Shown here in pieces: positions 1,273 to 28,660 of a stretch of 32,000 nt of DNA (positions are counted from its first letter, which is position 1; the number at the start of each line of letters is the position of its first letter). The DNA lies in the NCBI RefSeq assembly GCF_000012905.2, contig NC_007494.2, forward strand, positions 660,001 to 692,000, read 5' to 3'. The position numbers were made by a program, and so were the translations under genes. Below the pieces are notes generated by a model, which had not been told where the DNA came from, made no database searches, and saw only the letters and a program-made list of their open reading frames with translations. Source of the DNA: Cereibacter sphaeroides 2.4.1 (lineage in GTDB: Bacteria > Pseudomonadota > Alphaproteobacteria > Rhodobacterales > Rhodobacteraceae).

Positions 1273-3768
1273 TCAGCCGTCCTGACGGATCCGAACGTTC
1301 TTCGGATCGTAGGGCGAATCCTCGGCCACCACGGCCTCGCAGGTCTCGCGGAACATGCGCAGCTGCAGCTTCGTGCCCACCTCGGCCAGATCGGGGCGGA
1401 CATAGCCCATGCCGATCTGCTTGCCGAAGGCCACCGACCAGCCGCCCGAGGTGAGCCGGCCCACCTTCTCGCCGTTCAGAAGCAGCGCCTCCTTGCCCCA
1501 CGGATCGGCATCCGCCGGCCCGTCGATCAGGAGCGTCACGCATTTCGAGCGGATGCCGGTCGCGAGCATCGCTTCCTTGCCCTGAAAGTCCTTGCCGAGG
1601 TCGATGAACCGGTCGAGCCCCGCTTCCATCGGCGTCGCATCGCGGCCGAGCTCGTTGCCGAAGGCGCGGTAGCTCTTTTCCTGCCGCAGCCAGTTCTGCG
1701 CCCGCGCCCCCACGAGCTTCAGCCCGTGCTTTTCGCCCGCCTTCAGCAGCAGGTCCCAGAGATAGGTCGACATCTCGATCGGATGGTGCAGCTCCCACCC
1801 GAGTTCGCCCGTATAGGCCACCCGCACCGCCCGCACCGGGCACATGCCAAGCTCGATGTCGCGGTAGCTGAGCCAGGGGAAACGCTTGTTCGAGAGCCGG
1901 GTGGCGGGGTCGGCATCCTTCACCACCTCGTTCAGGATCGCGCGCGCATTGGGTCCGGCCAGCGCAAAGACCCCCCACTGGGTCGTCACGTCATGGATGT
2001 CGATCCAGCCGAAATCGCCGATCCTGTCTTCGGCGCATTTCCTCAGCCAGTCGGCGTCGTAGGCCGTCCAGGCACCGGCGGACACGAGGTAATATTCGTT
2101 CTCGGCCAACCGCACGATGGTATATTCGGTGCGCGTGGTGCCGGCGGGCGTCAGCGCGTAGGTCAGGTTGATCCGGCCCACAGCCGGCAGCTTGTTGCAG
2201 GTGAACCAGTCGAGGAAGGCCGTGGCGCCGGGGCCGCGCACCAGATGCTTGGTGAAGGCGGTGGCGTCGATCAGGCCCGCGGTCTCGCGCAGCGCCTCGG
2301 CCTCGGCGCGGGCGAACGGATGCCAGGCACCGCGGCGGAAGCTGCGGGATGCGTGGTCGAAACCGGCCGGCGCATCCGCAGGCCCGTAGTAGTTCGGCCG
2401 CTCCCAGCCGTTGACCTGCCCGAACTGCGCGCCGAGCGCTTTCTGCCGGTCGTAGACCGGGGCGGTGCGCAGCGGACGACAGGCTTCGCGCTCCTCGTCA
2501 GGGTGGTGGAGGATGAAGACATGCTCGTAGCATTCCTCGTTCTTCCGCGCCGCGTATTCGGTCGTCATCCAGCTGCCGTAGCGCCGGGGATCGAGCGAGG
2601 CCATGTCGATCTCGGCCTCGCCCTCGGTCATCATCTGCGCGAGATAGTGGCCAGTGCCGCCCGCCGCAGTGATGCCGAAGCTGAACCCTTCCGCCAGCCA
2701 CATGTTGCGCAGGCCCGGGGCGGGACCCACCAGCGGGTTGCCGTCGGGCGTGTAGCAGATCGGGCCGTTGTAATCGTCCTTCAGGCCCACGGTCTCGGAC
2801 GAGGGGATCCGGTGGATCATCGACATGTATTCCTCCTCGATCCGCTCGAGATCGAGCGGGAAGAGGTCGGCGCGGAAGCTCGAGGGCACGTCATAGAGGA
2901 AGCGGGCCGGAGCGTTGCGCTCGTAGGGGCCGAGGATCCAGCCGCCGCGCTCTTCGCGGACATACCATTTGGCGTCGGCGTCGCGCAGGACGGGGTGCTG
3001 CGGGTTGGTCTTGCGCCATTCGACCAGCGCCGGGTCGGGCTCGGTCACGATATATTGGTGCTCGACCGGAATGGCCGGGATCTTGATGCCCAGAAGCCGG
3101 GCGGTGCGCTGCGCATGGTTGCCGGTGGCGGTCACCACATGTTCGGCATGGATCTCGAAGCTTTCCTCAGTCGGGACGAGGTTGCCGCCCTGCTCGGCCA
3201 TCCGCACGCAGGAGACGATCCATTCGCGGCCCGTCCAGCGGTAGCCGTTGACCTGGATCCGGCGCTCGATGGTGCAGCCGAGCTGCCGCGCGCCCTTGGC
3301 CATGGCCTGCGTCACGTCGGCGGGGTTGATGTAGCCATCCTGCGGGTGGAAGAGCGCGCCCTTGAGATCCTCGGTGCGCACGAGGGGCCAGCGCTCCGCG
3401 ATCTCCTTCGGGCTCAGGAACTCATGATAGACCCCCGCCGTCTCGGCTACGGAGGAATAGAGCATGTATTCGTCCATCCGCGCGTCGGTCTGGGCCATGC
3501 GCAGGTTGCCCACGACATAGAAGCCGGGGTTGAGCCCGGTCTCGGCCTCGAGCCCCTTGTAGAAATCGACCGAATACTTGTGGATGTGGGTGGTGGCGTA
3601 GCTCATGTTGAAGAGCGGCAGAAGCCCCGCGGCGTGCCAGGTGGAGCCCGCGGTGAGCTCGTCGCGCTCGACCAGCATCGTGTCCCAGCCGGCCTTGGCG
3701 AGATGGTAGGCGATGCCGTTCCCGACAGCACCGCCGCCGACGACAAGGGCTTTCACATGGGTCTTCAT
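1273..3768 (-). CDS. FAD-dependent dimethylglycine/sarcosine dehydrogenase-like oxidoreductase with C-terminal aminomethyltransferase (GcvT) folate-binding domain
   Basis: 831-aa ORF. N-terminal dinucleotide fold VVGGGAVGNGIAYHLAKAG, a DAO-type domain, then a GcvT-like C-terminal half. SD ACGGAG lies upstream of the ATG at 3768. Confidence 0.88.
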   Translation of the reverse strand: MKTHVKALVVGGGAVGNGIAYHLAKAGWDTMLVERDELTAGSTWHAAGLLPLFNMSYATTHIHKYSVDFYKGLEAETGLNPGFYVVGNLRMAQTDARMDEYMLYSSVAETAGVYHEFLSPKEIAERWPLVRTEDLKGALFHPQDGYINPADVTQAMAKGARQLGCTIERRIQVNGYRWTGREWIVSCVRMAEQGGNLVPTEESFEIHAEHVVTATGNHAQRTARLLGIKIPAIPVEHQYIVTEPDPALVEWRKTNPQHPVLRDADAKWYVREERGGWILGPYERNAPARFLYDVPSSFRADLFPLDLERIEEEYMSMIHRIPSSETVGLKDDYNGPICYTPDGNPLVGPAPGLRNMWLAEGFSFGITAAGGTGHYLAQMMTEGEAEIDMASLDPRRYGSWMTTEYAARKNEECYEHVFILHHPDEEREACRPLRTAPVYDRQKALGAQFGQVNGWERPNYYGPADAPAGFDHASRSFRRGAWHPFARAEAEALRETAGLIDATAFTKHLVRGPGATAFLDWFTCNKLPAVGRINLTYALTPAGTTRTEYTIVRLAENEYYLVSAGAWTAYDADWLRKCAEDRIGDFGWIDIHDVTTQWGVFALAGPNARAILNEVVKDADPATRLSNKRFPWLSYRDIELGMCPVRAVRVAYTGELGWELHHPIEMSTYLWDLLLKAGEKHGLKLVGARAQNWLRQEKSYRAFGNELGRDATPMEAGLDRFIDLGKDFQGKEAMLATGIRSKCVTLLIDGPADADPWGKEALLLNGEKVGRLTSGGWSVAFGKQIGMGYVRPDLAEVGTKLQLRMFRETCEAVVAEDSPYDPKNVRIRQDG

Positions 3769-3907
3769 CCGCGCACTCCGTCACCGCAGGGTTTGCCGCA
3801 TCAATGACTGATCGCCGCCGCTGCGGAGAGGTGAGCCCGACATTTGGCGTCCGAAAACGACATGGGCGCGGATGGTGCGACGGAATGCTTGGAGCCGGCC
3901 GTGGCGC

Positions 3908-3997
3908 GGGGGGCTTTGCGCCCCCCGTCCGCCGCCGCAGGCGGCGGCGGACTTCGCCTGCGGCGAAGCCCCCCGCAGGATATTTGGGCAGAGTGAA
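3908..3997 (-). repeat. Intergenic modular repeat, copy D (reverse orientation; head, two GC hairpins, tail hairpin)
   Basis: Read on the minus strand just after the znuB stop: TTCACTCTGCCCAAATATCCTGCGGGGGG, CTTCGCC..GGCGAAG, a perfect 12-bp stem GTCCGCCGCCGC/GCGGCGGCGGAC (3927-3952), then GGGGGGC-GCAAA-GCCCCCC. Confidence 0.8.
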
Positions 3998-4002
3998 CGG
4001 TC

Positions 4003-4785
4003 TCAGGCGCGCCGCAGGAGCGCCGAGACGAGGAAGGCCAGCGCCGCAGCCGCGACGATCGAGGGGCCTGCCGGCGTGTCGAAGGCCAGCGAGGCGCCAA
4101 GGCCCGCGAGGCTTGCGCCCGCGCCGATCAGGGCCGCGAGCAGCGCCATCGGCTCGGGATTGCGGGCCAGGCCGCGCGCGGCCGCGGCCGGGATGATGAG
4201 CATGGCCGAGATCAGGAGCGCCCCCACCACCTTCAGCGCGACCGCCACCGTCACCGCGAGCGCGAGGGTGAGAATCAGCCGCTCGCGCGCGGGGTCGATG
4301 CCGGAGGCCGCGGCCAGATCCTCATTGATCGTGGCCGTGAGAAGCGCCGACCAGCGCCAGAGGAGAAGCGCCAGCACGAGCGCCGCTCCCGCCCAGATGA
4401 AGGCCAGATCCGGCACCGAGACGGCGAGGATGTCGCCGAAGAGCCAGGCCGAGAGATCGGTGCGCACCGAGGGCAGGAAGCTCACCGCGACGAGGCCGAA
4501 GGCCAGCGCGGAATGGGCGAGCACGCCCAGCATCGTGTCCATGGCCCAGCCGCGGCCGCTCAAGGTGGCCACGGTCGCGGCCATGACCAGCGCCACGGCG
4601 AGCGTGCCGAGCCCCACCGGCAGTTCGGTGGCGAGCGCCAGCGCCACACCGAGGATGGCGGCATGCGAGGTCGCGTCGCCGAAATAGGCCATGCGGCGCC
4701 AGACGACGAAGGCGCCGAGCGGCCCCGCCGCCAACGCCACGCCGATGCCCGCGAGCGCCGCGCGGATGAGGAAGTCGTCAAGCAT
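4003..4785 (-). CDS. znuB: Zinc ABC transporter permease ZnuB
   Basis: MLDDFLIRAALAGIGVALAAGPLGAFVVWRRMAYFGDATSHAA... is typical of the ABC-3 permease family. The start at 4785 overlaps the znuC stop by 8 nt. The longer ORF-track start (4923) lies inside znuC. Confidence 0.9.
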   Translation of the reverse strand: MLDDFLIRAALAGIGVALAAGPLGAFVVWRRMAYFGDATSHAAILGVALALATELPVGLGTLAVALVMAATVATLSGRGWAMDTMLGVLAHSALAFGLVAVSFLPSVRTDLSAWLFGDILAVSVPDLAFIWAGAALVLALLLWRWSALLTATINEDLAAASGIDPARERLILTLALAVTVAVALKVVGALLISAMLIIPAAAARGLARNPEPMALLAALIGAGASLAGLGASLAFDTPAGPSIVAAAALAFLVSALLRRA

Positions 4786-6065: not shown

Positions 6066-7103
6066 ATGCGTTATACCATATCAGTCGCTCTCGCCAGCCT
6101 GCTCGCGGGCCCGGCCCTGGCCGAAGTGCCGCGCGTGGTGACGGACCTGCCGCCGGTCCATTCGCTGGTGGCGCAGGTGATGGGCGATCTCGGAGAGCCG
6201 GACCTCCTGCTGGGCCAGGGAGCGGATCCGCATTCCTTCCAGTTGCGCCCGAGTCAGGCGCGCGCGCTGGCCAATGCCGATCTGGTGGTCTGGATCGGAC
6301 CGGAGATGACCCGCTGGCTCGAGCGCGCGCTCGAGGGCCGCAAGGGCGAGGAGCTGCGTCTCATGCAGGTCGCGGGCACGCATCTGCAGGACTTCGGCGA
6401 AGGCGCGGCACACGACCATGCTGGGCACGGCCATGACCATGCGGACGAGGACCACGATCACGCCGGCGAAGGGCACGAGCACGCGGACGAGGGCCACGCC
6501 GGCGAAGCGCACGATCACGCGGACGAGGGCCACACCCACGGCGACGAAGCGCACGATCACGGCGAACATGAGGGCCACAGCCATACGGGCCTCGACCCCC
6601 ATGCCTGGCTCGATCCCGAGAATGCGCAGCTCTGGCTGACGGCTGTCGCGCGCGAACTGGGCCACCTCGATCCCGAGAATGCGGCGACCTACGCCGCCAA
6701 TGCCGAGGCCGCCCGGGCAGCGCTGGCCGAGCTCGACCGCGAAACGGCCGCAAGGCTGGACGAGGCGCGGAACCAGCCCTTCTACGTCTTCCACGATGCC
6801 TACGGCTACTTCGCCGGCCACTACGGGCTGACCGTGCAGGGCAGCGTCTCGGCAGGCGATGCGGCCGCGCCGGGGGCGGCGCACCTCGCGGACCTGCGCG
6901 CGGAGATGGCGGGCACCCCGCGCTGCATCTTCCCGGAGGCGCAGCATGACGCGAAGCTCGCCCGGCAGATCGCGCAGGAGACGGGCGCGAAGGCCGGCCC
7001 GGCGCTCGATCCGTCGGGCAGCACGCTCGAACCGGGCCCGCAGCTCTACGCGAACCTGATCCGCGGCCTCGCCGACGGCATCCTGTCCTGCGTCGCCCCT
7101 TGA
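6066..7103 (+). CDS. znuA: Periplasmic zinc-binding protein ZnuA
   Basis: Signal peptide, cluster-9 SBP fold motifs, and the long His/Asp/Glu-rich loop HDHAGHGHDHADEDHDHAGEGHEHADEGHAGEAHDHADEGHTHGDEAHDHGEHEGHSH characteristic of ZnuA. SD AAGGAAAGG. Confidence 0.92.
   Translation: MRYTISVALASLLAGPALAEVPRVVTDLPPVHSLVAQVMGDLGEPDLLLGQGADPHSFQLRPSQARALANADLVVWIGPEMTRWLERALEGRKGEELRLMQVAGTHLQDFGEGAAHDHAGHGHDHADEDHDHAGEGHEHADEGHAGEAHDHADEGHTHGDEAHDHGEHEGHSHTGLDPHAWLDPENAQLWLTAVARELGHLDPENAATYAANAEAARAALAELDRETAARLDEARNQPFYVFHDAYGYFAGHYGLTVQGSVSAGDAAAPGAAHLADLRAEMAGTPRCIFPEAQHDAKLARQIAQETGAKAGPALDPSGSTLEPGPQLYANLIRGLADGILSCVAP
6411..6584 (+). repeat. Degenerate in-frame tandem repeat (~36 nt units) encoding the ZnuA His-rich loop
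   Basis: Units such as CACGCCGGCGAAG(G/C)GCACGA(G/T)CACGCGGACGAGGGC recur, encoding HAGEGHEHADEG / HAGEAHDHADEG / HTHGDEAHDHGEHEG. Confidence 0.8.
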
Positions 7104-8135: not shown

Positions 8136-8213
8136 ACCGAGCCGGGTGCCGCGGCTCCGCGACGGGGGTCGTGCCGAGCGCGTCCACAGCTTGCCCGCTT
8201 CGGCAGGGGCAAG

Positions 8214-8349
8214 ACGCTCCCGGCATCCCGATCCATGCGCCCCCGTCCGGTTATCCTGCATCTTACCTGTTCATTCCCGTTTGACCTTTTGCCGGTAACT
8301 CTGTGGGGACCGCATCAGCGGACAACCCTGCAAGATATCGAGGAAGATA
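8214..8349 (+). promoter_or_regulatory. Probable gvpA promoter / 5' UTR (AT-richer patch with a TTGACC hexamer at 8281-8286 and SD GAGGAAG)
   Basis: GC drops locally directly upstream of gvpA. No convincing -10 element or sigma-54 element could be assigned. Confidence 0.3.
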
Positions 8350-8562
8350 ATGGCCATTGAGAAAAGCGTTGCCTCCGCTTCGATTGCGGAAGTCATCGAT
8401 CGCATTCTGGACAAGGGCGTCGTGATCGATGCCTTCGTGCGTGTATCCCTCGTCGGGATCGAGCTGATCGCCATCGAGGTCCGTGCCGTCGTGGCGTCGA
8501 TCGAGACCTGGCTCAAATATGCCGAGGCTGTAGGCCTCACGGTGGATCCCGCCACGACCTGA
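8350..8562 (+). CDS. gvpA: Major gas vesicle structural protein GvpA
   Basis: 70 aa, [63 protein letters not shown]: the canonical GvpA core. Confidence 0.95.
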
Positions 8563-8570
8563 GGCCGCGC

Positions 8571-10142
8571 TCAGACGGGAGATTGCTGCAAGAGGTGCGT
8601 AGCAAGCGCGGCAATTTCCTGTCCCAGGGGCCGGTCCGTCTCAAGCGGCGGGAACTGCTCGCGCAGGGCCTGCACCAGCTTCTTCCCCGCGGGAGACACC
8701 CCGTCTAGGCCGCTGCCGCAGCGCAGCTCCGCAGCTTGTGCAAGACAGAGAGCGAGGATCGCAAGGATCTCCGCCCAACGGTCGATCTTCTCGCGGCAGA
8801 GGCGCGCGGCGATGGTCCCAAGCGAGACCACATCCTGATTGGCGGCGTTCGTGGAGATCGAATGGATCGAGGCAGGTCCCGTGGCTCGCATCTCGGCCAG
8901 GAGCGCGGTCGCCGTCACCTGTGCGCCCATGAAGCCGGAATTCAACCCGGCGGGGCCCCGGTGGAGGAAGGGGGGCAGCCCACGGTTCAGCCTTTCATCT
9001 GTCAGACGTGCAATCTGGCGCTCCGCAAGGCCCGCCAGAACGGTGACGGCCGTGGCGAGCGCATCGGACGTCAGCGCCACATGCTGGCCCATGAAATTGC
9101 CCCCGTGCAGGGCGGGCACGCTGCCATCGGGCGGAAACACCGGATTGTCGGTCACCGCGTTCAGCTCGATCGTCAGCACCCGGTCATGCCATGCGAGCGT
9201 GTCGAAGCCCGCCCCGAGAACCTGCGGAGCGCAGCGCAGGCTGTAGGCATCCTGCCCCGCCTCCGGCTCCGTCCCGATATCGCCGGCGTCGAGCCTCCGC
9301 TCGGCAATGACGTGCCGGACCACCCGCGCGCTGCCGTCCACGCGGGCGCGCAGCCTCGCTGCGGCGTCCTTCTGTCCGGGATGCGGCCGCAGGTCGGACA
9401 GTGCCGCGGCCCATGCCTCGGTCCGGCCTCTCAGACATTCCGCAAGCAGGGCCGTCAACGCCACCGCCCAGTTGCCGAGATGGCGGCAGGCGTGAGCATT
9501 CACCAGCGCGATCCCGGTCATGGCGGAGGTCCCGTTGACCAGCGCCAGTGCATCGCGATGGGAGAGATCGAGCGGTTGCAGCCGTCCGCGCCGGAGCCCT
9601 TCTGCGCCGTCAAGCCGCGTCCCGTCCCGGTCCAGGAAGTCTCCCCGGCCCTGGAGGCAGAGCACCATATGCGCAAGCGGTGTCAGGTCACCCGACGCGC
9701 CCACCGTGCCGCGGCTGGGAACGGCCGGAGCGAGCTCGGAATTGAGCAGGTCGATCAGGCGAGCGATGGTCCCCTCGCTGGCACCGGAGGCTCCCTGAGC
9801 GATCGACACCAGACGCGCCAGAACCATGGCGCGCGCCGTCGTCCAGTCAAGCACCGGTCCCACGCCGCTGGCCAGATGATGGACAAGATTGGCCTGCAGC
9901 GTTCGGACATTCTCACCTGAGATCAGGCGGTTCGCAAGGGGACCGAAGCCGGTTGTCAGTCCGTAGACATGGCGCGCCTCGCGGATGACAGCGCCGAGCC
10001 GCGCTTCGGACGCACGGCACCGGTCGCGCGCCGGAGGGGCAAGGACAATCCGCGCGCCGCCGCTCGCCACGGCATGGGCCTGGTCCAGATCGATGTGGCG
10101 ATCCAGCTCGACGGCCGGCTTCGGGGGGCTCATGGCGAGCAT
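8571..10142 (-). CDS. tal: Tyrosine ammonia-lyase (MIO-dependent HAL/PAL family), produces p-coumarate
   Basis: 523 aa from the ATG at 10142 (SD AGGGAG 8 nt upstream). MIO triad GASGDLTPLAH with Ala149-Ser150-Gly151 at 9690-9698. His89-Leu90 (9873-9878) is the Tyr-selectivity pair described for RsTAL. The ORF-track start at 10151 is a GTG three codons upstream. Confidence 0.92.
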   Translation of the reverse strand: MLAMSPPKPAVELDRHIDLDQAHAVASGGARIVLAPPARDRCRASEARLGAVIREARHVYGLTTGFGPLANRLISGENVRTLQANLVHHLASGVGPVLDWTTARAMVLARLVSIAQGASGASEGTIARLIDLLNSELAPAVPSRGTVGASGDLTPLAHMVLCLQGRGDFLDRDGTRLDGAEGLRRGRLQPLDLSHRDALALVNGTSAMTGIALVNAHACRHLGNWAVALTALLAECLRGRTEAWAAALSDLRPHPGQKDAAARLRARVDGSARVVRHVIAERRLDAGDIGTEPEAGQDAYSLRCAPQVLGAGFDTLAWHDRVLTIELNAVTDNPVFPPDGSVPALHGGNFMGQHVALTSDALATAVTVLAGLAERQIARLTDERLNRGLPPFLHRGPAGLNSGFMGAQVTATALLAEMRATGPASIHSISTNAANQDVVSLGTIAARLCREKIDRWAEILAILALCLAQAAELRCGSGLDGVSPAGKKLVQALREQFPPLETDRPLGQEIAALATHLLQQSPV

Positions 10143-10205
10143 TGGCTTCACTCCCTGTCTTCTCGCCGAAGGTAGTGGAAGCTGGTTAATGCAGAGTTTC
10201 TTGCT

Positions 10206-10538
10206 TCAGATCGTCCGCCCCAGCGGGCCCAGATCGAGCGAGAGATCCGCGGGCGTCAGGCCGAAACGGGCCGCCATCTCGTGGATGGCCGCCTCGGCCC
10301 GCATCAGTGTCGTGCCAAGCTGCTCTTGCTGACTCTCGCTCAGCGAGCCCGCCTCCATCCTGCGGATCGCCTGCAACTCCATGATCTGCCTCAGCATCTC
10401 CATCAGCCCCAGCAGAATACGGGCCAGATCATGCTCGAGCCGGTCCGGGTCGAGCGCGATGCGGGGCGCCGTGACCGGGGCCTCCGTCGGAGGCAAGCGG
10501 TCGTCGCGCAGCAGGAGCGGAGGAAAAGGATATGTCAT
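10206..10538 (-). CDS. gvpK: Gas vesicle protein GvpK
   Basis: 110 aa; LARILLGLMEMLRQIMELQAIRRMEAGSLSESQQEQLGTTLMRAE...LDLGPLG matches the GvpK family core. The ATG at 10538 overlaps the upstream stop (ATGA). Confidence 0.9.
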   Translation of the reverse strand: MTYPFPPLLLRDDRLPPTEAPVTAPRIALDPDRLEHDLARILLGLMEMLRQIMELQAIRRMEAGSLSESQQEQLGTTLMRAEAAIHEMAARFGLTPADLSLDLGPLGRTI

Positions 10539-11140
10539 GCTGTCTCCCAACTGATGAAGGCGTAAGGCGGCCAAGGGCCTGTCACGGTGCAGGCGGACCA
10601 GAGGGCATCGCCCACCCGCAGGCGTTCGCGAAGCTCGTGAAGCACAGGATGCGTCTCTGCCGCCGGAACCAAAAGATTGACCTGAACTTCGTCCTGAAGC
10701 CGCCCCGGGATGCAGCGAACCTCTCCGAGCAGCGACATGATCTGCATGAGCACCGTGCGCAGCCGCGCCTGATGCGCGGAGGCATCCCGGCGGGCGCGCA
10801 GCCAGCCCGCCCCAGACGCGGCTGCATCGGGCAAAAGGGGGGCAATCAGCCGCGCCGACACCGTCAGTTGCCGCTGCCGGCTGAAACGATCGATCTCTTC
10901 GGCGAGCGCATTCGTCCGCCTTCCACACCAGGCGATCGCCTCATCGACGGCAATTGTGGCCGCGGGTGGAAACGGCAGGAAGGTCTCGCAGTCCCGCATC
11001 GCAGCCAGATGCAGCCGAACGCGGCTGCGCGCATCGCCCGCCATGTCGTGCGGAGCGCAGACGAGGTGAAGCCCCGCGCAGGAAAGCGCGCAGCAGGTCG
11101 CCGGAACAGGTCCTGCGCGAGCGAGGCCGATGGGTATCAT
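10535..11140 (-). CDS. GvpF/GvpL-family gas vesicle protein (paralogue 4, short)
   Basis: The C-terminal TGPWPPYAF motif is diagnostic of GvpF/L. The ATG at 11140 overlaps the upstream stop (ATGA). The ORF-track start at 11161 is less likely. Confidence 0.78.
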   Translation of the reverse strand: MIPIGLARAGPVPATCCALSCAGLHLVCAPHDMAGDARSRVRLHLAAMRDCETFLPFPPAATIAVDEAIAWCGRRTNALAEEIDRFSRQRQLTVSARLIAPLLPDAAASGAGWLRARRDASAHQARLRTVLMQIMSLLGEVRCIPGRLQDEVQVNLLVPAAETHPVLHELRERLRVGDALWSACTVTGPWPPYAFISWETA

Positions 11141-11361
11141 GCTGCGTCCGGCACTCTGCATTGCAGCCTATCCGGGTTCGCCAGCAGCAGGTCGAGCCCG
11201 AGGAAGACGAGATCCACATCCGCAATCGTAAGCCAAAGCTCCCCCCGGATCGCGATGCCTTGTGACAGAAGGGCATCCACCACATCGACGAGGCGCGTTT
11301 CGCTGCTTTGCAGCGCTTCCTCCGCCGTCGCGAACTGGAGGGTCGGGGCTGAGTCAGTCAT
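11137..11361 (-). CDS. Small GvpA/J/M/S-family gas vesicle protein
   Basis: 74 aa; RLVDVVDALLSQGIAIRGELWLTIADVDLVFLGLDLLL resembles the hydrophobic GvpA-family core (GvpS/GvpM-like). Its start overlaps the upstream gene by 8 nt. Confidence 0.72.
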   Translation of the reverse strand: MTDSAPTLQFATAEEALQSSETRLVDVVDALLSQGIAIRGELWLTIADVDLVFLGLDLLLANPDRLQCRVPDAA

Positions 11362-12052
11362 GACCGCGGGTCTCCGGCAGGAAGGAAAAGGGAGCGCAGG
11401 GGCCGATCAATCGGACGGAAAGGGCGAGGCGAGATCCGGCACGGGAAGAGGCCTCTGCGGCCTCCAGCAGGCCTGGCACCCGATCCCGCGCGACAAGAAG
11501 GGAGAGATCAAGCAGCGGCCCGTCGGGCTTCAATGGACGCGCCGACGCCGAGCAGGACAGCGAGGCCAGCTCTTCGGCCGTGGCTCTCGCAAAGCCGGTT
11601 CGCTCGCGCGCCAGATGACGTCTCTGCTCGTGACGAGCGGAGCGGGCCTTGAGGAAGGCGGATCCCGAGGCCGGAGCTGGCGCGGCCCCGTCCGCGACCT
11701 GTTCCGCGATCAATTGCGCGACATACTCCGCCCGGCCCGCCAACCGTTCCATTCCGGCATCAAGGGTTGCACGTTCGGCGTCCAGATGGCGCTTCACGGC
11801 GGCAATACCAGTAAAGGCCGCCCCGAGAGCGACCGGGAGGACATCCTCGGTCGCGGCATAGGCGGACAGGATGGCGTTCTGCGCAAGAGCGGCCTGCACG
11901 GCCCAGTCAGGCGAAGCGGGATCCGGGGGCAGACGATCAAGCGACAGGAGAATCGCCGCGTAGCCGTCACCGTCCAGACGCAGGTGCGGAGAGGTGATCG
12001 CGGGGCTGATCCCAAGGCCGGAGACCACTCCCAGAAGAAGGAGGCCGCTCAT
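11354..12052 (-). CDS. GvpF/GvpL-family gas vesicle protein (paralogue 3)
   Basis: MSGLLLLGVV... N-terminus, an HNAIL-like segment (AQNAILSAYAATEDVLPVALGAAF) and C-terminal IGPCAPFSF. The ATG at 12052 overlaps the upstream stop (ATGA). Confidence 0.8.
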   Translation of the reverse strand: MSGLLLLGVVSGLGISPAITSPHLRLDGDGYAAILLSLDRLPPDPASPDWAVQAALAQNAILSAYAATEDVLPVALGAAFTGIAAVKRHLDAERATLDAGMERLAGRAEYVAQLIAEQVADGAAPAPASGSAFLKARSARHEQRRHLARERTGFARATAEELASLSCSASARPLKPDGPLLDLSLLVARDRVPGLLEAAEASSRAGSRLALSVRLIGPCAPFSFLPETRGHD

Positions 12053-12927
12053 GCGGCGTCCTCCAGATCGGAGGGCACGGCCTGACCTTCTGACCAGATA
12101 CGCACCAGATGCAGGTCTCCACCCGATGCGGCGCATCGTGTGAGCAGATCCAGCACGGCGGCCGCGGCAAGAATTTCTGCCCGCTCGGCCTCTGACGCGC
12201 GCAGCAGAAGGTCGCGCCGGAGCGCCCGGAGGCGGATCGGATCAACTGGCCCTTCCAGATCGAACCGGTGACGGGCGCGGCGGATCGCTGCCGAAGATAC
12301 TCTGCGGAAGTTGAGACTGGCGAAGGAAACGGGCGGCGACGGGCCGATCCGGCGGATCCTGAGCCCCTCTGTCCAGAGCGCATCAATCTGCTCGAGAGAT
12401 CGGTCAAGATCGTCGGTGCGGGTCTGCAGCAGAAGAAGTGCCTGGTTGGCAAGCATATCTTCCCGCAGCGGGAGATTGACGTGCCGCTCCGCCACCCGCG
12501 CCAGGGCGTCCGCAATCCGGTGAGTGAACCTGAGCCGAAGGTCTTCGGCCGTCTCGTCGGGGTCCGTGCGTTTCGGAACCAGCGCCGCGTGCCATTGGAC
12601 GAGAACCTGAAACTGCACCCGTCCGGCGAGACGCCGCAGCTCCTGTCTGAGCCGCGGGCTGTTTGCCGCAAGCGCGGCGGCGGCTTCGGCTGGTGTCAGG
12701 CAATTGCCGGTGAGGACGGGCAGAACCGTGCCGAAGGCCATCAGTCGCTCGAGCACCGCCTGCCTGCAGGCAGCATGTTCCAGAAGCGCGCGGCGACCGC
12801 TCAGCAGCCCGGGTGGCATACCGAGGATGGCGGTCAAGCCCGCCTCGCAAATGGCCTCGGTGCCTTCGGGCAGGACGGAAGGCGGATGGCCCTCTAGCAC
12901 GGCGACGACTTCCCGGAGCCTCATCAC
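12049..12927 (-). CDS. GvpF/GvpL-family gas vesicle protein (paralogue 2) with ~87-aa C-terminal extension
   Basis: GvpF/L core with LEHAACRQAVLERLMAFGTVLPVLTG and IGPSPPVSFA, followed by an extra Arg/Leu-rich domain. The start is GTG 12927 or ATG 12924; both overlap the upstream stop. Confidence 0.8.
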   Translation of the reverse strand: MMRLREVVAVLEGHPPSVLPEGTEAICEAGLTAILGMPPGLLSGRRALLEHAACRQAVLERLMAFGTVLPVLTGNCLTPAEAAAALAANSPRLRQELRRLAGRVQFQVLVQWHAALVPKRTDPDETAEDLRLRFTHRIADALARVAERHVNLPLREDMLANQALLLLQTRTDDLDRSLEQIDALWTEGLRIRRIGPSPPVSFASLNFRRVSSAAIRRARHRFDLEGPVDPIRLRALRRDLLLRASEAERAEILAAAAVLDLLTRCAASGGDLHLVRIWSEGQAVPSDLEDAA

Positions 12928-13181
12928 GCGCCCCTTTCAAGCGAAAAGATCATGCATTCTCGAGTGGCCGCGAAGCACTGCAATGCCTGCAGAACGTTCA
13001 GACCATCCGCGATGGCAGCTTCTCCTTCCAGCAACAGGTCCTCGACGGGGGTGCGGAACGATGTGTCTCGTGTGGCACCGCCACGAGGAATCGCGAGCCT
13101 TGCTGGGATTTGCTGGCCTGAGGGCGCGCAGCCGCGCGAACCAGCCTTCGGCCCTTTCACTTTCACCGCCGGAAATCTCAT
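12924..13181 (-). CDS. Hypothetical 85-aa protein inside the gvp operon (no family recognised)
   Basis: The ATG at 13181 overlaps the gvpG stop (ATGA) and its TGA overlaps the next gene's start. It has a basic N-terminal half and a helical acidic C-terminal half. GC3 is only ~64%, so coding status is uncertain. Confidence 0.4.
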   Translation of the reverse strand: MRFPAVKVKGPKAGSRGCAPSGQQIPARLAIPRGGATRDTSFRTPVEDLLLEGEAAIADGLNVLQALQCFAATRECMIFSLERGA

Positions 13182-13411
13182 CTCGCCGTTCCTTTGAGCC
13201 GCTCGAGAAGATCGAGTTCAATGGCGTCGTAGGTCTCCTCGGAAAGCTCGCCCGCGAGCAGTTGCCGCTCGGCTTCCACCAGAGCCGCCCGCAGCGCAGC
13301 GGGATCGTTCCAACTCTGTTCGGCAGCCTCGCCGATGCGGGCGGCAATCCACAGGGTTCCGTCGAACGGACCCCGAAACGGCAGCGTCAGGAGAGAGGTG
13401 AGCAGGCCCAT
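13178..13411 (-). CDS. gvpG: Gas vesicle protein GvpG
   Basis: 77 aa, MGLLTSLLTLPFRGPFDGTLWIAARIGEAAEQ...LLAGELSEETYDAIELDLLERL matches the GvpG family pattern. Its start shares one nt with the gvpF stop (TGATG). Confidence 0.85.
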   Translation of the reverse strand: MGLLTSLLTLPFRGPFDGTLWIAARIGEAAEQSWNDPAALRAALVEAERQLLAGELSEETYDAIELDLLERLKGTAR

Positions 13412-14175
13412 CAGGCAACCTCTTCGCGGCGGGGAGAGAGAACCAGATCGACAAAATTGAACAGGGGCACCGGTCCTATCACTCGAACGGACGGTTCGGC
13501 TGTCGGGGCGAAGCTGCAATCTGCCGCGGCTTTCACAAGCGCGGCAGCCAGGCGATCCTGGGCTCCGTCCTCGACCAACACATCGACGGCAATGACCTGA
13601 ACGTCGGAGTCCGGCACCCGCAGACGATGATCGACCCAAAGCGGACGGAGGCTCTGGAAGAGGAGACGTTGCGTCTCTCCCCGCCGGGCATCCAGCCGCT
13701 CTGCCAGTCGGCGCCCGAACTCGGCCTGTGCCATGGGATCGGGCCTGCGCAGGGCCAGAAGCCGCGCCCGCTCCGCCGCAAGGTCGGGCGCGGTGGCGAG
13801 GGTAGCGGCGAGCGCCGGTTCTCGGGGAAACGACAGGCGCAGACCGAGTTCCACCCGGCCGCGCACGCGGTCGAAGGCGGCGCAGAGTTCGGTCAGGCGC
13901 GACGCCAGCATGGCCGCGACCTCGGCGAGGGTCGATGCCATCATCCCGAACCGCATCGGAAGCAAGTTGCCGAACCAGGCCGCCGCCTCGAGCACCCGGG
14001 TATGCGCCAGGAGCAGGCGGCGCCGCGGCAGAATGTCGGCCTCTGTGGCGGAACTGTAGATCAGGATGCCTCCTGGAAGCCTCGCGAGTGCGATGGGCCC
14101 CGTGACCCCCGCCATGCCGGCAAGCACCTCGTGGCCGGAGGCGGGTTCCTCGAGCAGGCCGTAGAGATAGATCAT
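13411..14175 (-). CDS. gvpF: Gas vesicle protein GvpF
   Basis: 254 aa; MIYLYGLL... N-terminus, HTRVLEAAAWFGNLLPMRFG and C-terminal VIGPVPLFNF are typical of GvpF. Confidence 0.9.
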   Translation of the reverse strand: MIYLYGLLEEPASGHEVLAGMAGVTGPIALARLPGGILIYSSATEADILPRRRLLLAHTRVLEAAAWFGNLLPMRFGMMASTLAEVAAMLASRLTELCAAFDRVRGRVELGLRLSFPREPALAATLATAPDLAAERARLLALRRPDPMAQAEFGRRLAERLDARRGETQRLLFQSLRPLWVDHRLRVPDSDVQVIAVDVLVEDGAQDRLAAALVKAAADCSFAPTAEPSVRVIGPVPLFNFVDLVLSPRREEVA

Positions 14176-14705
14176 GGCGCCTCCGGAAGCGGGGCGGTCA
14201 GGTCAAGGATGCCGCTCTTGAGCGAGATCCGGATGTCGGCGAGCCCGACGCCGGGCGGGAGGGGGAACCGCCCCTCGTAACGCCGGCCGCTCCCTTCGGC
14301 CGAAATCAGGAGATCGCCTGCGTCGAGCTCCAGAGTGAGGTCCTCCTCGGCAACACCAGGTAAATCCGCCTGAAGCTGCCACGTCCGGCCCACCGTCGCG
14401 ATGTCCGCCAGAATGGGCCGCGCGGGCGCAGGTGGTCTCTCGGCGGTCTCCTCAGGCACCGGGCCCGGTTCGGGTTCCGCGTTGCCGAAGTCGGAGGCGT
14501 ACCGCACGCGGATGCGCGTCTCGGTGCGGATCGGGCCCATCCCGACGTCGATCGTGTGGTCCCGCCGGATCTCCCTGCTCTGGCCCGACTCGAGGCGACC
14601 TGTCATGTCGGAAAGGGCGCTGCCGAGCGCGCTGAGGAGGCGGCCGAACCTCAGCTCGATGTCAGCGGTCGTCCTGCCGGGGCCCGGCTTCTTCTCGTCG
14701 CTCAT
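14172..14705 (-). CDS. gvpH: Hsp20/alpha-crystallin-domain gas vesicle protein (GvpH-like)
   Basis: The C-terminal ACD-like segment is WQLQADLPGVAEEDLTLELDAGDLLISAEG...FPLPPGV...ISLKSGILDLTAP. It sits between gvpJ and gvpF and overlaps the gvpF start (ATGA). Confidence 0.75.
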   Translation of the reverse strand: MSDEKKPGPGRTTADIELRFGRLLSALGSALSDMTGRLESGQSREIRRDHTIDVGMGPIRTETRIRVRYASDFGNAEPEPGPVPEETAERPPAPARPILADIATVGRTWQLQADLPGVAEEDLTLELDAGDLLISAEGSGRRYEGRFPLPPGVGLADIRISLKSGILDLTAPLPEAP

Positions 14706-14706
14706 C

Positions 14707-15021
14707 TCATCCCTCGCGTGCTGCGGCCAGTTGCCCGATCTGGGTCTCGATCCGCTCGAGCCGGTCCAGCAGGGCGGCCGAACCGTCGGAGGCAGGCGCC
14801 TGCGTGATGCAGAGGCGAGGATCGCTCTCCCACCAGTTGATCCCCATCTCCCGCGCCTTGTCGACGGTGGCGACCAGAAGGCGCAGGCGGATCGTCAGGA
14901 GCTCGATCCCCACCAGCGAGATCGAAATGTCGCCGGCAATCACGATCCCCTTGTCGAGGATCCGCTCGAGGACGTCGGCCAGACTGTCCTGCTGGAGCGG
15001 GCTCTGCATCTGAAAGCTCAT
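14707..15021 (-). CDS. gvpJ: Gas vesicle protein GvpJ (GvpA family)
   Basis: 104 aa; SLADVLERILDKGIVIAGDISISLVGIELLTIRLRLLVATVDKAREMGINWWE is the GvpJ-type core. Confidence 0.9.
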   Translation of the reverse strand: MSFQMQSPLQQDSLADVLERILDKGIVIAGDISISLVGIELLTIRLRLLVATVDKAREMGINWWESDPRLCITQAPASDGSAALLDRLERIETQIGQLAAAREG

Positions 15022-15329
15022 GACGGCGCGCCCTCCTCGCGGTGGTAGCGCCCGAGGCGCTGGAAGCCGCCGACGCGGCCCTGCGGCGTCACCCGGATCT
15101 CGTAGGCACAGAGCAGGTCGTTGCGCCCGATCTTGGCCGCGCTTTCGATCACGTCGATCACGACGCGCCAGTCGCCGCCCTCGGTCTGCGCGCAGTTCGC
15201 CACCGCGTCGATGCGGCCGCCGTTCATGGTGGTGAAGGCCCGCCGCGCCACGGCGATGACTTCGAGCATCGTCAGGGCGGCCTGACCGGGCTCGGCGCTG
15301 AAGGCGAGGGTCTTGGGCTGATCCATCAT
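15018..15329 (-). CDS. gvpO: Gas vesicle protein GvpO
   Basis: 103 aa; ...GGDWRVVIDVIESAAKIGRNDLLCAYEIRVTPQGRVGGFQRLGRYHR matches the GvpO family pattern. SD GGGGGAAGGA. Confidence 0.8.
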   Translation of the reverse strand: MMDQPKTLAFSAEPGQAALTMLEVIAVARRAFTTMNGGRIDAVANCAQTEGGDWRVVIDVIESAAKIGRNDLLCAYEIRVTPQGRVGGFQRLGRYHREEGAPS

Positions 15330-15342
15330 CCGTCCTTCCCCC

Positions 15343-15486
15343 TCAGCGGCCCAGCAGGGCGAGCAGGATCTCGCGCTCGCGCTTACGCCGCTCCAGATCC
15401 TGCGCGCAGCGGGCCATCCGGCTCCGGGCAGCCTCCAGCGCCTTCTCGAGCCGGCTGACGTCGAACTCGAGCCGCACCAGATGCAT
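15343..15486 (-). CDS. Coiled-coil micro-protein (47 aa; alternatively 74 aa from the ATG at 15567) between gvpN and gvpO
   Basis: MHLVRLEFDVSRLEKALEAARSRMARCAQDLERRKREREILLALLGR is preceded by a strong SD GAAGGAGG 5 nt upstream. The longer form would start at an ATGA overlap with the gvpN stop, but its extra 27 aa are low-complexity R/P/A. Confidence 0.45.
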   Translation of the reverse strand: MHLVRLEFDVSRLEKALEAARSRMARCAQDLERRKREREILLALLGR

Positions 15487-15563
15487 CGCCGCCTCCTTCG
15501 GTGTCCGGGCGAGGGCCGGGGACGTCCTGCATGGCCGCCGGGCCGAGGTCGCTTTCGGGCTCT

Positions 15564-16514
15564 TCATCGGGCGGTCTCTCCTGGCGTGGGGGCGGCCAAC
15601 TTTGCCTCGAACGCGGCCGCATCGGCCTCGAGGCCGCGGCCCCTCAGCACGTCCGCGGCGATCTCGGCCAAGGCCGCGTCGCTCAGCCGGCCCGCGAGAC
15701 GCAGTGGCGCGGCGAGCCGGGCGACGAGAATGGCCGTGCGCATCGACGGCGGCGCCTGCATCTCGCCCGAGCGCTGGACGGACAGGATCAGATCCACGAT
15801 GCGGCGCGCCGTGGCGGGATCGAGGCCGCTGCGCAGCGCGACGATGCCCGCGAGCGTGGGCGCCGAAGGCTCCTCGAGCCGCAGGGTCACCATCCGGTCG
15901 ATCAGGGCGTCGGGGGCTGCCTTGACCCCCTGATACTCATGCGGGTTCGAGGTCAGCAGGACGCGGAAGTCGGGATGCGCCTCGATATACTGGTGCCGGC
16001 TCGCGCCGTCTGTCGAGACAAGCACCCCCTCTTCGAGCACCGAGAGAAGCGCGGCATTCGCCTCGGGCGAGGCACGGGTGAATTCGTCGTAGATAAAGGT
16101 CTGGCCGCACCGCATGGCCTGCCCGAGAATCGACTCCTTCCAGTCGATCCGCGCGCTCTGTTCGGTGCGCCGGACGCTCTGGATATAGCGGTCCACGACG
16201 CTGGTGACGGTCTGGCCGATCTCGCCGCCGATGAAGTCGCGGCTGCCGAGCCATTCGTTGCCGGTCATGAAGGCCACGGGCCGCCCGAGCGCCTGCGCGA
16301 TGCGCAGCGCGAGCGTCGTCTTGCCGAGGCCTGCCGGTCCGGCGAGATGGACGCAGACGCCGGCCCGGGCATATCCCAGCGCGCGGGCAAAGAGCGCCTC
16401 CGTCTCGGCATTCTGGAAATATCGGCCGCTCCGCCGGAGGCCGAGCCAGGGATTCTCGACCAGGGCGGCGTCGATACCGGCCGCATGCGGTAAGGATGGG
16501 CTCAGGACAGTCAC
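15564..16514 (-). CDS. gvpN: Gas vesicle AAA+ ATPase GvpN
   Basis: 316 aa; Walker A GPAGLGKTT, Walker B FIYDEF, AAA_5-like architecture. It is the first gene of the gvp operon. The start appears to be GTG at 16514. Confidence 0.9.
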   Translation of the reverse strand: MTVLSPSLPHAAGIDAALVENPWLGLRRSGRYFQNAETEALFARALGYARAGVCVHLAGPAGLGKTTLALRIAQALGRPVAFMTGNEWLGSRDFIGGEIGQTVTSVVDRYIQSVRRTEQSARIDWKESILGQAMRCGQTFIYDEFTRASPEANAALLSVLEEGVLVSTDGASRHQYIEAHPDFRVLLTSNPHEYQGVKAAPDALIDRMVTLRLEEPSAPTLAGIVALRSGLDPATARRIVDLILSVQRSGEMQAPPSMRTAILVARLAAPLRLAGRLSDAALAEIAADVLRGRGLEADAAAFEAKLAAPTPGETAR

Positions 16515-16621
16515 GTTCGGCGACCTCGTTCTTCCGGTCGCCCCAGAAGACGCGAGTCAGTTTAAGGACGGATTAAGCCGAACCCGATTTATCCAGGCGC
16601 GCTACGGCTGTCCTCGAACCG
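16515..16621 (-). promoter_or_regulatory. Probable gvpN-operon promoter / leader (AT-richer patch, inverted repeat GGATTAA-N11-TTTATCC at 16570-16594, leader hairpin 16519-16542)
   Basis: This is the only sizeable non-coding gap upstream of the 14-gene unit. No sigma-factor consensus was confidently matched. Confidence 0.3.
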
Positions 16622-26474: not shown

Positions 26475-26617
26475 TTCGGCACCTTCTGCAGCCTCCGCCA
26501 GCCCCTAAACGCCCCCGCGCCACAGGTCAACCGCCCCCCGCGCAAGTTTTTGCCGCCTCGGGAACCGGGGGATGAGCGGCTTTCCGTTTCCTTACATTTC
26601 AGTGACTTGAGGGAGAT

Positions 26618-26655
26618 CCGGGGGCGCTGTTATCCGATAGCAGCCCCGGGTTTTT
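26618..26655 (+). terminator. Orphan intrinsic-terminator-like hairpin plus T5 in the leader of the 26740 gene
   Basis: CCGGGGGCGCTGTTATC-C-GATAGCAGCCCCGG followed by GTTTTT. There is no plus-strand CDS upstream, because trmB diverges. Confidence 0.45.
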
Positions 26656-26739
26656 GCCTGACACGCCGCTTCGACCCATGTTCCGGAGCAGCAGATACCA
26701 CCGCCCCTGCCGACCGGGGCGCGAACAACGGAGACAGAG

Positions 26740-27276
26740 ATGACCATCGACCTTCGCAAGACCGCCATCGCCGCGCTGGCCGCCCTCTCGCTGGTGCCCG
26801 CCGCCGCGGCGCCCGCCCATGCGCTCGGCAAGAAGGACAAGGCCTTCATCGCCGGCGCCGCCACCGCGGCCGTTGCGGGCGTGGTGATGCAGAACATGCG
26901 CGCCAACGGCCAGTGGCCCTTCGGTCAGCAGCAGCCCCGCTATGCGGCCCCGCCGGCCCAGCCGCAATATTACGTCCAGCCGCGGGCGACCTATGCCACC
27001 ACCGCCCCGCGTCAGGTCACCTACCAGCCCCGCTATGTGGCCCCGAGCGTCCATTCCACGCCCGCAGCCCAGGCCTTCCGCGAGCTCTCGCCCCAGATGC
27101 GGCGCGAGGTGCAGATCTCGCTCGCGCGCTACGGCTATTACTCGGGCTCCATCGACGGCGCCTGGGGGCCCGGCACCTCGGCCGCGGTCGATGCCTATGC
27201 CCGCGACAGCGGCCGCATCGGGCAGCTCGGCAGCGTCGCCGGCGCCTACGGCGTGATGGACAGCCTCGGGGGCTGA
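26740..27276 (+). CDS. Secreted protein with C-terminal peptidoglycan-binding (PG_binding_1) domain
   Basis: Signal peptide ...VPAAAAPAHA-LG, a Pro/Gln/Tyr-rich linker, then VQISLARYGYYSGSIDGAWGPGTSAAVDAYARD. Confidence 0.8.
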   Translation: MTIDLRKTAIAALAALSLVPAAAAPAHALGKKDKAFIAGAATAAVAGVVMQNMRANGQWPFGQQQPRYAAPPAQPQYYVQPRATYATTAPRQVTYQPRYVAPSVHSTPAAQAFRELSPQMRREVQISLARYGYYSGSIDGAWGPGTSAAVDAYARDSGRIGQLGSVAGAYGVMDSLGG

Positions 27277-27322
27277 ACCGGATTTCACGAAGCGCCTTTT
27301 CAGCAAGAGTTTCAGAACGACA

Positions 27323-27354
27323 GAAGCCCCGGCGATCCGCCGGGGCTTCATTTT
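27323..27354 (+). terminator. Rho-independent terminator (possibly bidirectional)
   Basis: 12-bp stem GAAGCCCCGGCG / CGCCGGGGCTTC, 3-nt loop, then ATTTT. It lies between convergent gene ends. Confidence 0.75.
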
Positions 27355-28572: not shown

Positions 28573-28578
28573 GGGAAG

Positions 28579-28625
28579 TGCTCCGTTGGGGTTAACCCCG
28601 TCACGCCAGGAAGCCGTTGTGACGG
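28579..28625 (-). promoter_or_regulatory. Probable SAM/SAH riboswitch in the metK leader
   Basis: Minus-strand RNA: CCGUCACAACGGCUUCCUGGCGUGACGGGGUUAACCCCAACGGAGCA. The P1 stem is CCGUCAC/GUGACGG. Loop GCUUC can pair with the 3' GGAGC, which contains the SD 9 nt before the AUG. The CACAACGGCUUCCUG core matches my recollection of the Rhodobacterales-specific SAM/SAH motif found upstream of metK. Confidence 0.7.
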
Positions 28626-28660
28626 TTGCCCTCCGCGCTACACCCCTGAGGGGAGGCGGG

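Follow-up and report, generated by a model that had tools for sequence, protein, structure and literature searches.

We analyzed 32,000 nt of the Cereibacter sphaeroides 2.4.1 genome (contig NC_007494.2, positions 660,001–692,000; this whole stretch is called the window, and its first letter is position 1), in which a gas-vesicle (gvp) gene cluster lies at 8136–16621. We are confident that this region is a functional gvp locus, controlled in trans by CtrA and representing a reduced derivative of a supercluster that joins the gvp genes to pyp, the gene of photoactive yellow protein (PYP). The gvp cluster of C. sphaeroides is a known system that has been partly characterized experimentally in the same organism. 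The details added here are the coordinates and cross-genus conservation of a CtrA-type box, the probably non-coding character of an 85-codon frame (orf85), a family of 74-amino-acid (74-aa) proteins, and the comparison with relatives; some of them may already stand in Hernandez-Valle et al. 2020 (J Bacteriol 202:e00678-19).

In C. sphaeroides, both the expression of gvp genes and the formation of gas vesicles are reported to depend on the trans-acting CckA/ChpT/CtrA phosphorelay (PMC11999139, PMC9430884). More than 300 genes of this species are reported to be under CtrA, gas-vesicle genes among them, and a gvpN::uidA fusion in the chromosome serves as a CtrA reporter (PMC11999139); a later transcriptome likewise places the gvp genes within the CtrA-dependent set (PMC11655674). 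Gas vesicles were seen by electron microscopy (EM) in strains with active CtrA, and their formation was reported to be CtrA-dependent (PMC9430884), which makes outdated the remark of the first-pass annotation that the host was not known to be gas-vacuolate. Its proposal that regulation acts in trans agrees both with these reports and with a candidate site upstream of gvpN:

16562–16576: CtrA-type box TTAAGGACGGATTAA (TTAA-N7-TTAA), 48–62 nt upstream of the gvpN GTG start

The pattern TTAA-N7-TTAA, which we take to be the CtrA box consensus, occurs in this promoter region as the single match in the 32-kb window of ~68% G+C, even when one mismatch is allowed (0.13 expected). A species-level genome scan gave just C. 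johrii, and the sampling was therefore widened through GvpN homologues to nine loci, namely the window, L001 (C. johrii) and seven others (L002–L008). C. johrii has an identical box and identical sequence over the ~90 nt that lead to the start codon, and the sequence farther upstream diverges, with an indel. A full box stands at −62/−63 from gvpN in L001, L002 (metagenomic) and L003 (Rhodovulum sp. P5), where it is the sole full box in each ~20-kb locus. Phosphorylated CtrA would bind the box at 16562–16576 and activate one long mRNA, and no terminator-like site was predicted in any intergenic gap of the minus-strand unit. As the first-pass annotation had noted, the cluster appears to encode no regulator of its own: none of the cluster ORFs tested matched a regulator domain in Pfam or NCBIfam. 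In R. capsulatus, gvp genes also belong to the CtrA regulon (PMC4158056, PMC7232146), and some are repressed by FnrL (PMC4158056, PMC7232146, PMC4634722). A search of the gvp promoters for FnrL-type sites (TTGAT-N4-ATCAA) returned just two-mismatch matches, located inside coding sequence.

Gene content and integrity of the gvp locus

The locus holds 13 gvp-linked genes together with a tyrosine ammonia-lyase (TAL) gene, a content for which the earlier term "minimal set" is not appropriate. On the minus strand, the order is gvpN, the 74-aa gene, gvpO, gvpJ, hsp20, gvpF, gvpG, a spacer of ~250 nt, gvpL, a gvpF-like gene, gvpS/M, another gvpF-like gene, and gvpK. The features are as follows:

15564–16514, minus strand: gvpN, AAA+ ATPase, 316 aa, GTG start (AAA_5, 62 bits)
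15343–15567, minus strand: conserved 74-aa gene, function unassigned; its ATG overlaps the gvpN stop (ATGA)
15018–15329, minus strand: gvpO (PF05800, 49 bits)
14707–15021, minus strand: gvpJ, GvpA/J family (PF00741, Gas_vesicle, 65 bits)
14172–14705, minus strand: Hsp20-family protein (PF00011, 27 bits), same position kept in relatives
13411–14175, minus strand: gvpF (PF06386, 156 bits)
13178–13411, minus strand: gvpG (PF05120, 74 bits)
12925–13177, minus strand: spacer of ~250 nt, probably non-coding by its divergence pattern (orf85, 12924–13181, 85 codons)
12049–12924, minus strand: gvpL, GvpL/GvpF family, 291 aa from ATG 12924 (PF06386, 70 bits)
11354–12052, minus strand: second GvpF/L paralogue (PF06386, 82 bits)
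11137–11361, minus strand: gvpS/M-like small GvpA-family protein (PF00741, 41 bits)
10535–11140, minus strand: divergent fourth GvpF/L-like protein (PF06386, 19.7 bits against a cutoff of 23.6)
10206–10538, minus strand: gvpK (PF05121, 110 bits)
10143–10205, minus strand: gvpK–TAL spacer, 63 nt, with a degenerate CtrA-like GAAA-N7-TTAA at 10186–10200 and no predicted terminator
8571–10142, minus strand (alternative GTG start 10151): TAL (RsTAL), 523/526 aa (PF00221, 501 bits)
8350–8562, plus strand: gvpA, major structural protein (PF00741, 60 bits)
8245–8349, plus strand: conserved region upstream of gvpA, with a TTGACC hexamer at ~8281–8286 and a CCGC..GCGG hairpin at ~8301–8312

A GvpA-type structural protein (Pfam Gas_vesicle) is encoded by gvpA, and gvpJ and the gvpS-like gene match the same family. 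The accessory set F, G, J, K, L, M/S, and O is present with all members above their Pfam cutoffs, the sole sub-cutoff case being the extra fourth GvpF-like gene, which is backed by orthologues; a GvpN AAA+ ATPase is also encoded. Profile-HMM searches with Pfam thus support the Gvp assignments that had been made from the letters alone, including four GvpF/L paralogues, three of which exceed the PF06386 cutoff. The fourth assignment holds at the family level because six of its nine orthologues match PF06386 (best E = 4e-11). The genes named in the first-pass annotation were all recovered, but its list omitted gvpA and the 523/526-aa lyase gene, both of which lie within 8136–16621.

With 240 bits, gvpN stayed under the equivalog cutoff (266.8) of the TIGR02640 GvpN model; it has 1457 homologues at E ≤ 1e-20, and JGI names homologues GvpN. 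The best NCBIfam match of the gvpS/M-like protein was GvpM, below the GvpM cutoff. For gvpL, the start was placed at ATG 12924 because GTG 12927 reads GCG in C. johrii and the ATG is conserved; the public homologues of gvpL also have 291 aa.

To measure selection, the locus was aligned with the C. johrii contig that is syntenic to it (92.4% identical at the nucleotide level), and substitutions were counted by codon position. Purifying selection was seen on every locus gene except orf85, with counts of 13/5/46 for gvpN, 3/0/13 for gvpK, and 26/11/88 for TAL. The gvpA product does not differ from that of C. johrii (100% identity); the eight nucleotide changes in the gene all fall in one codon position.

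GvpC is an outer-layer repeat protein of cyanobacteria, haloarchaea, and Serratia and is not universal among gas-vesicle systems. Among the cluster ORFs, no Gas_vesicle_C match (Pfam) and no tandem repeats (repeat search) were found, consistent with the earlier statement that no GvpC-like protein is present. That no integrase, transposase, or tRNA sits at the cluster borders was also confirmed, and Pfam identified the flanks as had been proposed, namely an aldose epimerase gene and a puuD-type urate hydroxylase gene, the latter directly upstream of gvpN. No plasmid-borne copy of the cluster or of Cereibacter pyp was found in PLSDB.

The gvpA gene forms a separate transcription unit that is convergent with TAL, with 8 nt between the stop codons. 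The ~105 nt upstream of gvpA are nearly identical in C. johrii, and the sequence farther upstream diverges; the TTGACC hexamer and the CCGC..GCGG hairpin are partly conserved across the nine loci. Similar motifs stand upstream of gvpA (CCTGCATCTTACCTG, 8255–8269) and of TAL (CTCTGCATTAACCAG, minus strand, ~10182–10196), both invariant in C. johrii, and may be a shared operator or a chance resemblance. An inverted repeat, CTGAG..CTCAG (8560–8573), spans both stop codons of the gvpA/TAL pair without a T-run, and read-through from either unit would yield antisense RNA to the other. A similarly tight convergent gvpA/TAL arrangement (17-nt gap) is found in L002 and L003. The G+C content at third codon positions (GC3) is 0.72–0.77 in gvpF, gvpG, gvpL, the two GvpF-like genes, and gvpS (10535–14175), and 0.84–0.93 in gvpN, the 74-aa gene, gvpO, gvpJ, and hsp20 (14172–16514) as well as in gvpK; flanking genes have values of 0.83–0.90.

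Two small ORFs had been left unassigned in the first-pass annotation. The 74-aa ORF proved to be a real gene, whereas orf85 lacks a protein-coding signature (see below). The 74-aa product is 100% identical to ABA81184.1/Q3IWA0_CERS4 of C. sphaeroides 2.4.1. Its substitutions relative to C. johrii are gene-like (2/0/7; 1/0/4 in the first 27 codons), and its GC3 is 0.89. An exhaustive HMMER search gave 22 representative homologues, mostly 74–75 aa long and alignable from residue 1, which have the core motif KEAAIxLVRLEFDxxRL in common. The gene follows gvpN in nine of nine loci, including an uncalled GTG-start copy in Pseudorhodobacter. On the strength of these substitutions, GC3, homologues, and positions, the long form of this micro-ORF is real, and its ATGA coupling to gvpN at 15564–67, which had been proposed on that condition, is genuine.

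Members of the 74-aa family are labeled "hypothetical protein" throughout public sources, and no Pfam or NCBIfam match was found. In an AF2 model built from the family alignment (pLDDT 87), a disordered basic N-terminal tail is followed by a continuous helix over residues 23–73 with a heptad-like hydrophobic pattern, which is predicted to be a single amphipathic helix of ~50 residues. The model contains no repeats and no DNA-binding fold, which speaks against a regulator or a GvpC hidden in this ORF, an outcome that the first-pass annotation had considered. Only tentatively do we propose that the 74-aa protein is an uncharacterized core gas-vesicle component, either an assembly factor or a small GvpC-like stiffener, and, linked to this, that the position of TAL might make PYP maturation conditional on the buoyancy/motility program.

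The locus among its relatives and the link to PYP

The first-pass annotation described the architecture as unusual; the same gene order is standard in at least seven other Rhodobacteraceae-type loci. The 5′ part of the shared order consists of a 141-aa gene, pyp, two small ORFs, and a gene for a pCL-like AMP-binding ligase, followed by gvpN. The gvp part runs gvpN, 74-aa gene, gvpO, gvpJ, hsp20, gvpF, gvpG, AAA+ gene, gvpL, gvpF-like, gvpS, gvpF-like, gvpK, TAL, and gvpA. Matching solved PYP structures at E = 6e-34, the 124-aa PAS protein of the relatives is a true PYP. The window shares the core gvp order, with the 74-aa gene in its place behind gvpN, and carries TAL at the gvpK/gvpA end, as do most of the loci examined (TAL in 7/9). 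It differs from the supercluster at two places: puuD abuts gvpN where pyp and the pCL-like ligase gene would stand, and the ~250-nt spacer replaces a Cdc48-like double AAA+ gene between gvpG and gvpL. PYP-module genes were found neither in the window nor in the C. johrii locus. This comparison of gene orders suggests that the Cereibacter locus is a reduced derivative of the Rhodobacteraceae-type pyp-gvp supercluster, without the AAA+ gene and the pyp module. In Roseivivax, the PYP module is immediately preceded by a puuD orthologue in the same orientation, an arrangement suggesting that Cereibacter lost the module from the interval between puuD and gvpN.

The AAA+ gene of the relatives encodes a Cdc48/p97-like protein of 676–698 aa with an N-domain and two AAA domains, and it overlaps both gvpG and gvpL. 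It was located as follows:

L002:13368–15464, L004:13268–15298, L006:13394–15469, and L008:13348–15438: Cdc48-like AAA+ gene, intact
L003 (Rhodovulum):13419–14903 and 14900–15517: Cdc48-like AAA+ gene, split

It is absent from Cereibacter, L005, and L007. Given its absence from two other loci and its splitting in Rhodovulum, we regard it as an accessory gene that is often lost. The literature retrieved for gas vesicles and Cdc48 was mostly haloarchaeal, with no paper evidently on a bacterial gvp cluster.

In four relatives, further genes lie between the pCL-like gene and gvpN:

L002:5704–9941, L003:5615–9941, L006:5595–9900, and L008:5664–9919: multi-PAS methyl-accepting chemotaxis protein (MCP) gene and CheW-domain gene

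The MCP and CheW genes physically link PYP, chemotaxis, and gas vesicles in these loci. In a 2025 survey of pyp operons, MCPs appear solely as PYP fusion proteins, and gas vesicles are never mentioned (PMC12826048). Three conserved genes without Pfam matches (~141, 195, and 170 aa; L002:2372–2797, 3214–3801, and 3798–4322, with equivalents in L003–L008) occur together with pyp and the pCL-like gene upstream of gvpN in every case, and a divergent gene pair (~250 and ~160 aa) lies upstream of the PYP module in L004, L005, L007, and L008. These three genes and the pair are uncharacterized candidates for PYP partners.

The TAL protein of the window is 100% identical to PDB 2O6Y, which we take to be the characterized R. 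sphaeroides tyrosine ammonia-lyase, over all 521 resolved residues. The product that TAL forms from tyrosine, p-coumarate, is the PYP chromophore (PMC12826048). The lyase gene follows gvpK directly on the same strand in Cereibacter (window and L001), L002, L003 (Rhodovulum), and L006 (Roseivivax) and lies less than 2 kb from gvpK in L004 and L007; L005 and L008 have none. The gvpK–TAL spacer is nearly invariant relative to C. johrii (two substitutions and a 3-nt indel), and L004 (Rhodobacter sp. KR11) carries a full TTAA-N7-TTAA just downstream of gvpK. TAL may be read from the gvp transcript or from the weak CtrA-like site in this spacer, and the chance that its expression is coupled to that of the gvp genes is about even. 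If TAL is co-expressed, the supply of p-coumarate would rise with the buoyancy and Fla2 program.

C. sphaeroides encodes a PYP, Q53226, and its function, like that of the Rhodobacter PYPs in general, is given as unknown (PMC12826048). A hidden PYP gene was sought in the window by tblastn with the H. halophila PYP and all L002 and L006 PYP-module proteins, and nothing was found; the C. sphaeroides pyp gene must lie elsewhere in the genome, outside the gvp locus. According to the 2025 survey, TAL occurs in just 5% of pyp operons (PMC12826048), and a review table gives "gas vesicles (cell buoyancy)" as a presumed PYP pathway for Rhodobacter (PMC6273459). A Burkholderia pyp plasmid carries pCL, TAL, and c-di-GMP genes and no gvp genes. 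Because pyp and the pCL-like ligase gene abut gvpN in the relatives, the locus is tied to a sensory system, although it encodes no transcription factor.

Competing explanations and translational coupling

Several points count against a functional, CtrA-controlled, and reduced locus. The distant loci L004–L008 keep just TTAA-N7-NNAA at about the equivalent position, and CtrA binding at 16562–16576 is a prediction from the motif. The region upstream of gvpA contains no full CtrA box. Co-transcription of TAL with gvpK is inferred, the spacer is not demonstrably a remnant of the AAA+ gene, and whether the AAA+ gene and the pyp module were lost or gained was judged by parsimony over nine loci, not from a phylogeny. 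The locus might instead be a decaying relic, largely silent and heading to pseudogenization after loss of the AAA+ gene and the pyp link, a reading that the absence of both from Cereibacter and the split AAA+ gene of Rhodovulum would favor. However, all 13 genes, TAL, and gvpA are intact and, in the comparison with C. johrii, evolve under purifying selection, and the promoter region is invariant in that species. The published EM, which shows gas vesicles once CtrA is active (PMC9430884), contradicts a relic, and we consider this explanation extremely improbable. The lyase gene could also be a chance neighbor, for example a catabolic enzyme gene, with no functional tie to gvp or PYP signaling. 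In NCBIfam, the lyase is closest to histidine ammonia-lyase models, none of which it matches above cutoff; the window contains no pyp or pCL-like gene, L005 and L008 lack TAL, and the 2025 survey is silent on gas vesicles. Against this stand the identity of the protein to a crystallized enzyme, the recurrent placement of the gene after or near gvpK, the near invariance of the gvpK–TAL spacer, and the presence of pyp and the pCL-like ligase gene in seven of seven non-Cereibacter loci, and we judge chance proximity to be quite unlikely.

The remaining alternative concerns orf85, which could be a genuine, fast-evolving small protein gene coupled to gvpG and gvpL, so that the chain of genes would be unbroken. 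Its frame is open in both the window and C. johrii (tblastn aligns 71 residues), it overlaps gvpG by an ATGA and meets gvpL in a GTGA/TGATG junction, and its sole indel, of 9 nt, is a multiple of three. Its substitutions relative to C. johrii, however, are spread evenly over the codon positions (20/17/18), whereas all neighbors are third-position biased, and with 21% of its nucleotides substituted, the frame has diverged more than any other part of the locus, true intergenic regions included. The GC3 of orf85 is 0.63, compared with 0.72–0.93 in its neighbors; three of the six frames in the spacer are free of stops, and two plus-strand frames are as open as orf85 itself. No family match was found for orf85 in Pfam or NCBIfam, and the relatives carry at this position either the AAA+ gene or an unrelated spacer of 200–340 nt. 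We therefore regard a protein-coding orf85 as unlikely and the interval as probably a non-coding spacer. A structured RNA in the spacer was rejected (fold z = −0.4; no Rfam match). A remnant of the AAA+ gene is unproven, as similarity to AAA+ termini was not significant: tblastn with the AAA+ C-terminus against the C. johrii spacer gave weak collinear hits (E = 2–4), and a profile of five AAA+ C-termini ranked that spacer fifth of 1506 fragments (E = 1.6) and gave no score for the spacer of the window.

Every start/stop overlap and gap listed in the first-pass annotation is present as written. ATGA overlaps occur on the minus strand at 15564–67, 15018–21, 14172–75, 13178–81, 12049–52, 11137–40, and 10535–38, and a GTGA occurs at 12924–27. 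An 8-nt overlap, ATGACTGA, lies at 11354–61, a TGATG with a single-base overlap at 13411, a 1-nt gap at 14706, and a 13-nt gap (15330–15342) before gvpO. From these junctions one coupled unit had been proposed; the intact, translationally coupled locus stands, but the unbroken chain from gvpO to gvpK probably does not, as orf85 is probably non-coding. For the same reason, the junctions at 13178–81 and 12924–27 are probably not couplings between genes, and two blocks result, gvpN–gvpG and gvpL–gvpK. Within these two blocks, the 4-nt and 8-nt start/stop overlaps would couple translation and thereby fix the ratios of the accessory proteins.

For annotation, the gains are that orf85 is probably no gene, that the 74-aa ORF belongs to a conserved gvp-linked family, that gvpL has an ATG start, and that the fourth GvpF-like gene is supported. 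Because Cereibacter forms vesicles without an ATPase kept by relatives, the Cdc48-like ATPase is marked as accessory, which is relevant to the mining of compact gvp clusters for acoustic reporter genes. If correct, TAL at the end of a CtrA-driven operon would give Rhodobacter PYPs a role in light-guided vertical positioning. With TAL at the operon tail and pyp, pCL-like, MCP, and CheW genes beside gvpN in relatives, the idea that PYP guides buoyancy or taxis becomes directly testable in an organism that is genetically tractable. What remains of interest is the 74-aa family, so far unannotated, the natural lack of the AAA+ gene in a species that forms vesicles, and a possible connection of PYP with buoyancy.

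The remaining genes of the window are housekeeping genes (znuABC/zur, trpB, trpF, rpsA, aroA, trmB, metK, lnt, and ybeY). A SAM-SAH riboswitch (RF01727, 61 bits, E = 4e-11) was found at 28579–28628 on the minus strand, inside the 5′ end of the longest metK ORF (27406–28785), indicating that the real metK start lies downstream of it. ARAGORN called an 809-nt permuted tmRNA at 26539–27347 (minus strand), which overlaps an ORF with a peptidoglycan-binding domain; Rfam gave no tmRNA at the gathering threshold, and the call is probably a false positive. ZnuA (6066–7103, plus strand, 345 aa) contains a long His/Asp/Glu-rich insert, HDHAGHGHDHADEDHDHAGEGHEHADEGH..., whose length differs in C. johrii (361 columns aligned).

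Comparison with known gas-vesicle systems

The gvp cluster of Serratia sp. ATCC 39006 resembles that of the window in being proteobacterial and in having GvpN, several GvpF paralogues, and several GvpA-family proteins. The Serratia cluster includes GvpC and its own gvrA/B/C regulators, whereas the window has neither GvpC nor cluster-borne regulators and relies on CtrA.

The p-vac and c-vac regions of Halobacterium salinarum comprise gvpACNO and gvpDEFGHIJKLM, of which eight genes are essential according to Offner et al. 2000, as summarized in PMC3646047. Homologues of all eight classes reported there (A, F, G, J, K, L, M-like, and O) are present in the window, together with GvpN. In contrast to Halobacterium, the window lacks GvpC, GvpD/E, and GvpI, has two additional GvpF/L paralogues, Hsp20, the 74-aa protein, and TAL, and is organized as one long coupled operon with a convergent gvpA.

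The gvp clusters of R. capsulatus and Loktanella adjoin pyp, as stated in PMC3646047 with reference to Kyndt 2004 (Biochemistry 43:1809). As far as the R. capsulatus pyp-gvp region is described there, it and L002–L008 have the same core order as the window, with TAL and gvpA at the distal end. Compared with them, the window lacks the 141-aa gene, pyp, the two small ORFs, and the pCL-like gene, the PAS-MCP and CheW genes that only some of them carry, and the AAA+ gene.

The closest known system is the C. sphaeroides gvp cluster of the CtrA regulon (Hernandez-Valle et al. 2020, as relayed by PMC9430884 and PMC11999139). It is the same locus, and those accounts describe CtrA-dependent gvpN expression and vesicles visible by EM; between that published cluster and the one analyzed here, there is no difference in kind.

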